64,000 nt of DNA, from NCBI RefSeq assembly GCF_030384885.1, contig NZ_CP128613.1; one strand, written 5' to 3'. This DNA is from Escherichia coli. Lineage in GTDB: Bacteria; Pseudomonadota; Gammaproteobacteria; Enterobacterales; Enterobacteriaceae. Below are positions 20,520 to 50,234 of the stretch, in pieces; the first letter of the stretch is position 1; each line of letters begins with the position of its first letter. Under the pieces are notes generated by a model that was given only the letters and a program-made list of their open reading frames with translations, was not told where the DNA came from and ran no database searches. The translations under genes were made by a program, and so were the position numbers.

Positions 20520-21012
<493 letters not shown>

Positions 21013-34820: not shown

Positions 34821-35444
34821 TTAATCCAGTTGGGTAATATCAAAAGCGGCGCGGTCGATCACCGCAATGATCTTTTTTATTTGTGCATCAGTGATATCGC
34901 TCTGGTTGACGCGTAAATCCAGCACCGCTTTAAAATTATCCAGCGCCCGCTTCATTTGCGGGTTCTGGCGCAGCGCAGCGCCAACGCAACGCGCTTTGAT
35001 GCGCTCTTCAATCATCTCCACCTGTTCGCGGTTTTCTTCCAGCCACTGCGCGCCTTGTTCGGTCAGCGCAATCTGCTTCTTACCACCTTCCTCTTCGCGG
35101 ATGGTAATCAGCGACTGCTCCTGCAGAAAATCCAGCGTCGGGTAGATGACGCCCGGGCTTGGGGTGTAATTTCCCTGGGTCAGATTTTCAATCGCTTTAA
35201 TCAATTCGTAACCGTGGCTGTCATCGCGCGAGAGAATATCCAGAATCACCAGACGCAATTCGCCGTGACCAAAGAAACGTTGCCGACGACCGCCGCCGCG
35301 ACCGTGGCGACCACCACAGCATTGACCGTGTTCATGCTGGTGACCGTGTCCACAGTGTTCATGTTCTGATTTCTCACCTTTGCAGCAGCCTTCATGGCGT
35401 GGCTGGCCTTCATGTTTACAACACCCTTCGTGATGATGGCTCAT
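34821..35444 (-). CDS. yqjI: PadR-family transcriptional regulator YqjI (207 aa)
   Basis: ORF track 207 aa MSHHHEGCCKHEGQPRHEGCCKGEKSEHEHCGHGHQHEH... (His/Cys-rich N-terminus, PadR HTH). Confidence 0.9.
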   Translation of the reverse strand: MSHHHEGCCKHEGQPRHEGCCKGEKSEHEHCGHGHQHEHGQCCGGRHGRGGGRRQRFFGHGELRLVILDILSRDDSHGYELIKAIENLTQGNYTPSPGVIYPTLDFLQEQSLITIREEEGGKKQIALTEQGAQWLEENREQVEMIEERIKARCVGAALRQNPQMKRALDNFKAVLDLRVNQSDITDAQIKKIIAVIDRAAFDITQLD

Positions 35445-35464
35445 ATCAGCCTCCTTTTGCTTAA

Positions 35465-35478
35465 TTAGATATATCTAA
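35465..35478. promoter_or_regulatory. Candidate YqjI operator (perfect palindrome TTAGATATATCTAA) at the yqjI promoter
   Basis: 14-bp perfect palindrome 20 bp upstream of the yqjI start; the same AGATATATCT core recurs before yqjH. Confidence 0.5.
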
Positions 35479-35544
35479 TTTATATCTGATGTAAGCATTA
35501 GTGCAAGTGTAAAAATGATTTTTAAACGTGGACTCATCTCACAC

Positions 35545-35620
35545 GTAGGCCGGATAAGGCGTTCACGCCGCATCCGGCGTTGAGTAATGATGCCTGAGAA
35601 GAGGCGGTTCGTCTTATCAG
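35545..35620. repeat. REP element inside the yqjI-yqjH divergent intergenic region
   Basis: gtaggccggataaggcgttcacgccgcatccggcg followed by gatgcctgaga...cgtcttatcag. Confidence 0.6.
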
Positions 35621-35694
35621 ACTATAGACATATCAGTTCTACAAATCGCTTGCATTTATCACGATTAACAATCATTATCATTTAATAATTTTAT

Positions 35695-35708
35695 TTAGAT
35701 ATATCTGA
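35695..35708. promoter_or_regulatory. Candidate YqjI operator (AGATATATCT core) at the yqjH promoter
   Basis: ttAGATATATCTga 24 bp upstream of the yqjH start; second copy of the palindrome seen at 35465. Confidence 0.5.
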
Positions 35709-35731
35709 TTATCATCACGAAGGCGATAACA

Positions 35732-36496
35732 ATGAATAACACCCCCAGCTACCCACAGCGCGTTCGCAATGATCTGCGCTTCCGTGAACTGACTGTGTTA
35801 CGCGTTGAGCGTATCAGTGCCGGTTTTCAGCGCATTGTCCTCGGCGGCGAGGCGCTGGACGGTTTTACATCGCGCGGCTTTGACGATCACAGCAAACTCT
35901 TCTTTCCTCAATCTGACGTTCACTTTGTGCCGCCAACGGTAACGGAAGAGGGGATCGTCTGGCCGGAAGGACCACGCCCACCGTCGCGTGACTATACGCC
36001 ACTGTATGACGAACAACGTCATGAACTGGCGATCGATTTCTTTATTCACGACGGCGGAGTCGCCAGCAGCTGGGCAATGCAGGCGCAACCGGGCGATAAA
36101 CTCACGGTGGCAGGTCCGCGCGGTTCGCTGGTGGTGCCGGAAGATTACGCGTATCAGGTGTATGTTTGCGATGAGTCCGGAATGCCGGCACTGCGCCGCC
36201 GCCTGGAAACGTTGAGTAAACTTGCCGTTAAACCGCAAGTTACCGCGCTGGTCAGCGTACAGGATAACGCCTGTCAGGATTATCTCGCGCACCTTGATGG
36301 TTTTAATATCGAATGGTTGGCGCATGATGAGCAGGCGGTAGACGCACGCCTGGCGCAGCTGCAAATCCCTGCCGATGATTACTTCATCTGGATAACCGGC
36401 GAAGGCAAAGTCGTTAAGAATTTAAGCAGCCGCTTTGAAGCGGAACAGTATGACCCACAGCGGGTACGCGCAGCGGCTTACTGGCACGAAAAGTAA
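35732..36496 (+). CDS. yqjH: NADPH-dependent ferric-siderophore reductase YqjH (254 aa)
   Basis: ORF track 254 aa MNNTPSYPQRVRNDLRFRELTVLRVERISAGFQRIVLGG... Confidence 0.9.
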   Translation: MNNTPSYPQRVRNDLRFRELTVLRVERISAGFQRIVLGGEALDGFTSRGFDDHSKLFFPQSDVHFVPPTVTEEGIVWPEGPRPPSRDYTPLYDEQRHELAIDFFIHDGGVASSWAMQAQPGDKLTVAGPRGSLVVPEDYAYQVYVCDESGMPALRRRLETLSKLAVKPQVTALVSVQDNACQDYLAHLDGFNIEWLAHDEQAVDARLAQLQIPADDYFIWITGEGKVVKNLSSRFEAEQYDPQRVRAAAYWHEK

Positions 36497-36549: not shown

Positions 36550-36625
36550 TGGTGGCCCCTGCTGGACTTGAACCAGCGACCAAGCGATTATGAGTCGCCT
36601 GCTCTAACCACTGAGCTAAGGGGCC
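36550..36625 (-). tRNA. ileX: tRNA with CAU anticodon, ileX-type (tRNA-Ile2, lysidine-modified) including 3' CCA
   Basis: Reverse complement reads GGCCCCTTAGCTCAGTGGTTAGAGCAGGCGACTCATAATCGCTTGGTCGCTGGTTCAAGTCCAGCAGGGGCCACCA; cloverleaf with CTCATAA anticodon loop. Confidence 0.9.
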
Positions 36626-48995: not shown

Positions 48996-50234
48996 TTAAT
49001 CAGGCTTTGGACAACGTTGTTCCTTCCAGCTGGCTACCGCCGCAATCCGCCGTCGGGTCAGCTCCTCGCGAATCTCCACACCTTTAAATCCCGCTTCAAC
49101 GACGGCTTTTGTCGGCACTGACTGTGCCACTTCCCAGGCTTCGCGCAACCAGCGGCCTTGCGGGTAGTCCGCTGATTCAAAACCGGTTCTGCCGCGCACA
49201 TCAGCCTCGCTGGTCAGCGCCAGTTGCTCGACACGCTGCGGTTTACGCCAGGCGTCGATGGAATCAAATAGTTTGACGATGGTTTTTGGGTTCAGCATTG
49301 GGAAGGTGTGGATGAGATCGTGAAACTCAGCCACCAGTCTGGCTAAATCGCGAATTTCATTTGGCACGCGCAGACGCTGGCATAGTTGTTCCACTAACTT
49401 CACACCCGCCGGGCCATGACCATGATGACGCGGCCAAAGTTCTGGCGGCGTCAGTCCTTTACCGAGATCGTGGCATAGCGTTGCGAAACGGACATCGACC
49501 TGCGGACTTAGCATCGCCGCCATTGAGAGCGTCATTAAGGTGTGAATACCGGTGTCGATTTCCGGATGCCACTTGGCAGGGGCCGGAACGCCAAACAGGG
49601 CGTCAATTTCCGGGAATAAAACGCGCAGTGCGCCGCAATCGCGCAGTACCTGGAAGAACACCTGGGGATTGCGGGTAGTGAGGGCGCTTTCCGTCTCTTT
49701 CCACACCCGTTCAGGCGTCAGGTGTTCCAGTTCACCCGCGTGGGTCATCTCGCGCATCAGCGCCAGCGTTTCATCGGCAATACGAAAACCGAGGTGGGCA
49801 TAACGCGCAGCAAAACGCGCCACGCGCAGTACGCGTAACGGATCTTCGCCAAAAGCGGGGGAAACATGGCGCAACAGACGATTTTGCAGATCGCCCAGAC
49901 CGTTGTACGGGTCGATAATCTCGCCGTTATCGTCCTGGGCCAGCGCATTAATGGTCAGATCGCGCCGCTTAAGATCATCTTCCAGCGTGACATCCGGTGC
50001 GGCATAGCAGGTAAAACCGGTGTAACCGGAACCGGATTTCCGTTCGGTACGTGCCAGCGCATACTCTTCATGCGTTTGCGGATGCAGAAAAACAGGAAAA
50101 TCGCGGCCTACCTGCTGGTAGCCCGCGTCGAGCATCTCCTGTGGCGTACTACCGACTACCACCCAATCTCTGTCTTTGACCGGTAGCCCTAACAATGCAT
50201 CCCGAACAGCACCACCGACCAGATAAATCTTCAC
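48996..50234 (-). CDS. cca: tRNA nucleotidyltransferase (CCA-adding enzyme) Cca (412 aa)
   Basis: ORF track 412 aa [66 protein letters not shown]... Confidence 0.9.

Follow-up and report, generated by a model that had tools for sequence, protein, structure and literature searches.

Two matching palindromes at the divergent nfeR and nfeF promoters of Escherichia coli as probable operators of the PadR-family regulator NfeR (YqjI)

PadR-family repressors are winged helix-turn-helix (wHTH) dimers that are encoded beside their target, bind a dyad operator over its promoter and are released by a ligand. The operators of PadR in B. subtilis and of LmrR in L. lactis read ATGT-N8-ACAT. The NfeR (YqjI) system resembles these repressors in its general plan but differs from them in several respects: its predicted operator, TTAGATATATCTAA, is unrelated to ATGT-N8-ACAT; its ligand is a metal, sensed via a His/Cys-rich N-terminal extension that typical PadR proteins do not have; and it has two operators, located at divergent promoters, with an extra phased half-site at one of them. 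A second type of comparable system combines Fur with another local repressor. There, as at the locus described here, a Fur box over the -10 element is followed by a second operator and derepression is of the AND type, whereas here the second input is nickel, acting via a PadR protein.

Two studies, Wang et al. 2011 (J Bacteriol 193:563) and 2014 (J Bacteriol 196:3199), reportedly present YqjI as a repressor of both yqjH (nfeF) and itself, acting via two sites in the spacer between these genes. The 2011 paper names Fur as a regulator of yqjH in its title, and the title of the 2014 paper speaks of binding sites and target promoters in the plural, with reference to this spacer. According to papers citing Wang et al., NfeR represses the adjoining nfeF gene and nickel lifts this repression. 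Deletion of nfeR in Klebsiella increased nfeF expression 85-fold, and nfeR itself is nickel-induced (PMC9508795), as would be expected under autorepression. A search of papers other than the primary NfeR studies returned no match to the palindrome motif analysed below. Similarly, a structure search found no solved NfeR structure, returning only distant PadR proteins (E 6e-9 or weaker), and NCBIfam contains no NfeR-specific model.

We analysed a 64-kb stretch of E. coli chromosomal DNA (hereafter the window), in which positions 35445-35731 are exactly the 287-bp spacer (36% G+C) between the divergently oriented nfeR and nfeF genes (Table 1). The start codon of yqjI appears as CAT at 35442-35444 on the plus strand, and yqjH begins with ATG at 35732. 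The preliminary description had identified yqjI as a PadR regulator gene and yqjH as a siderophore reductase gene, and both Pfam domains and RefSeq annotation agree with it. The NfeR protein (WP_000018005.1) contains the PadR wHTH domain, and its position equals that of b3071 in K-12. A 1.9-kb query was 100% identical to E. coli strain 2013C-4282, and a search of 5426 complete E. coli genomes recovered the locus in 5422.

Gene order (aer-nfeR<>nfeF-ileX-mug-rpoD) is common to the window and K-12. The tRNA-Ile gene between nfeF and mug, which corresponds to ileX in K-12 (anticodon CAU), is located at 36553-36625 on the minus strand. Spacer length, both palindromes and the REP element are identical in the two strains and the Fur box is the same. 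The differences lie in the six nucleotides that separate the Fur box from site I (AATAAT at 35684-35689 in the window versus GCGAGT in K-12), in the yqjH leader at 35712 (ATC versus ACC) and in the yqjI -35 region (TTGCAC versus TTGCAA); all of these are strain-level substitutions only. The yqjH promoter allele of the window is rare, with 11 of the 5426 complete E. coli genomes showing at least 99% identity over 35660-35734.

Table 1. Positions of genes and of predicted regulatory elements at the nfeR-nfeF locus of the window.
Feature	Position	Strand	Sequence, basis or remark
nfeR (yqjI)	34821..35444	-	ORF; Pfam PadR E=2.5e-15; RefSeq NfeR; PadR-family repressor, His/Cys-rich N-terminus MSHHHEGCCKHEGQPRHEGCC...
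Site II main operator (predicted)	35463..35480		18-bp perfect palindrome AATTAGATATATCTAATT; core GATATATC at 35468-35475; over predicted yqjI transcription start
yqjI sigma-70 promoter (predicted)	35479..35506	-	-35 TTGCAC (35506-35501), 16-nt spacer, -10 TATAAA (35484-35479); read from sequence
Site II extra half-site (predicted)	35481..35490		TATATCTGAT; AGATATA in yqjI direction; overlaps yqjI -10
REP, canonical Y-type	35545..35578	-	0 mismatches to REP consensus; hairpin
yqjH promoter, best-conserved candidate	35650..35678	+	-35 TTGCAT (35650-35655), 17-nt spacer, -10 CATTAT (35673-35678)
Fur-box-like region	35661..35685		13/19 to GATAATGATAATCATTATC on both strands: 35661-35679 (+) and 35667-35685 (-), overlapping
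yqjH promoter, alternative	35665-35670, 35689-35694	+	TTAACA-18-TTTTAT (PMC3946193)
Site I operator (predicted)	35695..35708		TTAGATATATCTGA; core GATATATC at 35698-35705
nfeF (yqjH)	35732..36496	+	ORF; Pfam FAD_binding_9 1e-36, SIP 7.6e-26; RefSeq; NADPH-dependent ferric-chelate (siderophore) reductase

Matching palindromes, TTAGATATATCTAA and TTAGATATATCTGA, had previously been described at 35465-35478 and 35695-35708, just upstream of the two start codons and with a REP element between them. This description proved accurate in each part: the coordinates are exact, the palindromes are separated from the start codons by 20 nt (yqjI) and 23 nt (yqjH), and a perfect match to the canonical REP lies between them. 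The left copy is a 14-mer contained within the longer palindrome of site II, while the right copy, site I, is symmetric but for one outer pair. The exact 10-mer AGATATATCT occurs at these two places only within the 64 kb. When each site is read towards the gene that it precedes, an oriented 11-mer, TTAGATATATC, is common to both.

The comparison across genera is the strongest evidence against a chance origin of these palindromes. The comparative set comprised 32 related loci (one genome per species) together with K-12, Salmonella and Phytobacter; with the window, 35 spacers were available from eight genera, namely Escherichia, Citrobacter, Salmonella, Enterobacter, Lelliottia, Superficieibacter, Raoultella and Phytobacter. 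The divergent yqjH<>yqjI pair is kept in 33 of the 33 loci with both genes; these come from 34 loci found by protein, one of which ends at its contig edge. Not one of the 35 loci departs from the core GATATATC at either promoter (100% invariant), and TTTaGATATATC at site I is conserved in the same set. An alignment-free 8-mer comparison of the spacer against the 28 non-Escherichia spacers revealed three main conserved islands, which correspond to site II (35465-35487), to the Fur box together with the -10 element (35669-35683) and to site I (35693-35706). Positions 35708-35715 also score, but only because this short run repeats the Fur-box word ATTATCAT. No other conserved island was detected in the spacer by this footprint, and beyond the palindromes and the Fur box/-10 region hardly any of the sequence has been kept. 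Depending on the locus, the two sites lie between 96 and 230 bp apart, with neither a conserved length nor a conserved helical phase. In ten Enterobacter and Lelliottia loci the entire spacer is only ~145 bp long and the operators are 96-97 bp apart.

Site II is more complex than a single palindrome. The sequence TATATCT at 35481-35487 repeats the palindrome half-site 11 bp away, and in the yqjI direction the site as a whole reads T.AGATATA..TTAGATATATC. Each position of the AGATATA in this extra half-site is 97-100% conserved among the 35 loci, and the 11-bp spacing is kept. In Enterobacter and Lelliottia, site II comprises three 11-bp-phased units (TGATATATCTAA-ACTATATCTAA-GATATATTCAG) at spacer positions ~19-55. 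The K-12 yqjI promoter, given as TTGCAA-16-TATAAA (PMC3946193), has its counterpart in the TTGCAC-16-TATAAA that we read in the window. From these promoter positions it follows that the -10 element would overlap the extra half-site and that transcription would be expected to start at the palindrome centre. A stricter scan with consensus promoters recovered neither the yqjI nor the yqjH promoter. Its sole match was a weak antisense promoter, ATGATA-16-TAAAAT at 35715-35688 on the minus strand, spanning site I in the direction of yqjI and at chance level. The YqjI footprint at the yqjI promoter is reportedly an extended one, for which the extra half-site at site II would account.

Two candidate promoters can be considered for yqjH. 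The pair TTAACA-18-TTTTAT is poorly conserved outside Escherichia, whereas TTGCAT-17-CATTAT is much better conserved: CTTGCA and CATTAT are kept in nearly all 35 loci and, with few exceptions, exactly 19 nt separate CATTAT from the site I core. In the K-12 assignments of PMC3946193, the -10 hexamers abut the palindrome at both promoters. Site I would be placed at +1 by TTAACA-18-TTTTAT and at approximately +10 to +23 by TTGCAT-17-CATTAT, and either promoter would leave it inside the stretch that RNA polymerase covers. The Fur-box region contains AATCATTATCATT in 25-28 of the 28 non-Escherichia spacers.

A conserved A-tract, CTATCAAAAAA, is found ~10 bp upstream of CTTGCA in 19 loci (Citrobacter, Salmonella and Raoultella), and this tract, adjoining the putative yqjH -35 element, looks like an UP element. 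This position is occupied by AGACATATCA...ACAAATCG in E. coli and by AGATATATCA, a copy of the palindrome with one mismatch, in E. albertii. Whether AGACATATCA (35626-35635) might be one more NfeR half-site, ahead of the yqjH -35, was considered and rejected, since other genera conserve the A-tract and not TATATC.

The REP element is present in Escherichia loci only. A degenerate second REP-like arm, CGTCTTATCAG in both the window and K-12, runs to ~35623. The Rfam model naRNA4, which is REP-derived, scores 46.5 bits at 35548-35623, under its gathering threshold of 59.5 bits; the region is a REP relative and not a member of naRNA4 (REP325-derived RNA). Within Escherichia, positions 35579-35625 (in the region of alignment columns 137-190 including the REP, 35545-35625) are highly variable, carrying numerous substitutions besides an 11-bp indel. 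Two further REP copies are found in the window, at 507-540 (1 mismatch) and 20975-21008 (3 mismatches), and the 1.9-kb query matches each E. coli genome at a median of 30 places. Regulation is reportedly disturbed when the spacer is shortened or the REP mutated, and full repression reportedly needs both sites intact.

Taken together, the conservation of the two palindromes, their identity in K-12 and the literature on the system make it very probable that they are the NfeR (YqjI) operators. From this conservation and the published studies, YqjI is predicted to contact exactly these bases. At the yqjI promoter, a metal-free NfeR dimer (or higher oligomer) would occupy the 18-bp palindrome together with the half-site located 11 bp from it, covering the -10 element and the transcription start, so that RNA polymerase would be excluded and nfeR would repress itself. 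At the yqjH promoter, NfeR would bind TTAGATATATCTGA directly downstream of the Fur box that overlaps the -10 element; with site I lying beside a separate Fur box, Fe-Fur and NfeR would repress yqjH independently. Nickel bound to the His/Cys-rich N-terminus MSHHHEGCCKHEGQPRHEGCC would then lower the affinity for DNA and derepress both genes. The repression and the nickel response in this scheme are taken from the literature, whereas the promoter positions and the occlusion of polymerase are our predictions. In eleven loci assigned to Enterobacter and Lelliottia, the NfeR N-terminus begins MRHEHEGGGRRPRFFGHG... and contains none of the Cys-rich HEGCC repeats seen in NfeR of E. coli and Citrobacter, so that nickel may be sensed differently there.

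A variant of this scheme, which we put forward only tentatively and regard as rather unlikely, is that NfeR assembles on a phased 11-bp AGATATA array (two units in most genera, three in Enterobacter and Lelliottia) and does not bind a palindrome as a simple dimer. The communication between the two sites reported for E. coli would then be a lineage-specific elaboration. The REP is limited to Escherichia, the inter-site distance, at 96-230 bp, has no conserved helical phase, and gSELEX makes PepA a possible architectural partner.

Among the alternatives to NfeR operators, the one that survives best, while still very improbable, is that another protein, either an extended Fur array or PepA as an architectural factor, occupies the palindromes and that NfeR binds elsewhere in the spacer. 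The AT-rich palindrome does resemble promoter -10 and Fur hexamers, which counts against the operator reading. Fur-like hexamers cluster at 35661-35716, positions 35698-35716 match the Fur consensus at 12 of 19 positions, and part of the palindrome conservation could reflect promoter or Fur constraints. However, the canonical Fur box forms a separate conserved island, no Fur box adjoins site II at the yqjI promoter, and the spacer offers NfeR no further conserved island. Moreover, one and the same oriented 11-mer at the promoters of a repressor and of its target gene is the classic mark of a locally encoded regulator. As for PepA, the nfeF/nfeR spacer was its only K-12 genomic target in gSELEX (PMC8249747), but this result stands without follow-up, and it is conceivable, as a speculation, that His-rich NfeR co-purified on Ni-NTA.

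Less probable still is that no regulator acts specifically through the palindromes, which would be either products of chance in AT-rich DNA or ordinary promoter elements (-10-like TATAT). Within the 64 kb, three matches to the 10-mer with at most one mismatch were found versus 0.86 expected, an excess that is marginal, with 5 of 100 shuffles reaching three, and weak when taken alone. For the 14-mer with at most two mismatches there were four strand-matches versus 0.22 expected, a number equalled in 0 of 100 shuffles. The spacer is AT-rich and was therefore also shuffled by itself. Palindromes of 10 bp are fairly common in such dinucleotide shuffles (mean 0.53 per shuffle), but an identical 10-bp palindrome was present twice in just 14 of 5000, and a repeat of at least 12 nt was seen in 23 of 5000. 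Furthermore, the core at both sites has stayed invariant while flanks and spacing diverged, and promoter hexamers alone do not demand an identical 11-mer at two promoters. The third near-match to the 10-mer, AGATAAATCT at 50221-50230, is a one-mismatch copy of the palindrome at the 5' end of a 412-aa ORF. It was rejected as a further site because it lies within an ORF and the number of matches fits the chance expectation.

Finally, a function of the palindromes at the RNA level, as 5'-leader hairpins for translation or stability, can practically be dismissed: a 5-bp A/U-rich hairpin can arise from each palindrome within its predicted leader, but the folds of these leaders do not surpass those of shuffled sequences (z = -0.20 and -1.26), and a start inside the yqjI palindrome (and likewise inside that of yqjH if TTAACA-18-TTTTAT is used) would leave the full hairpin untranscribed.

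A different repeat connects the two transcripts. A 13-nt perfect inverted repeat is formed by CCTTCGTGATGAT (35425-35437, yqjI codons 3-7) and ATCATCACGAAGG (35711-35723, yqjH Shine-Dalgarno region), so that AUCAUCACGAAGG would stand in both the yqjI mRNA and the yqjH leader. We rejected a shared sRNA target based on AUCAUCACGAAGG, since the repeat has a length of 11 nt in K-12 and of 10-11 nt among the remaining Escherichia, and elsewhere it is lost or moved to a different HEG repeat. It probably represents His-Glu-Gly codons coinciding with the ribosome-binding site CACGAAGG.

With NfeR as the probable occupant of both palindromes, the arrangement corresponds to that proposed in the preliminary description, in which YqjI represses both itself and yqjH; cross-genus conservation, identity with K-12 and the literature on nfeF repression and nickel all support it. 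The NfeR system is already known from K-12; our analysis confirms the palindromes as described and supports their interpretation. Not obviously covered by the known literature are the phased multi-unit structure of site II, the limitation of the REP to Escherichia, the lack of a fixed distance or helical phase between the sites and the missing Cys-rich N-terminal segment in Enterobacter and Lelliottia, all of which are modest refinements.

The biological interest of this system, which has been characterised in E. coli K-12, is that it ties nickel stress to the release of siderophore iron. Our analysis refines the definition of its operator, which comprises an invariant core and an oriented 11-mer common to both sites, with one more phased half-site at the promoter of nfeR itself. 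Neither the REP nor the distance between the sites, both of which have been linked to regulation in E. coli, is conserved across the system.
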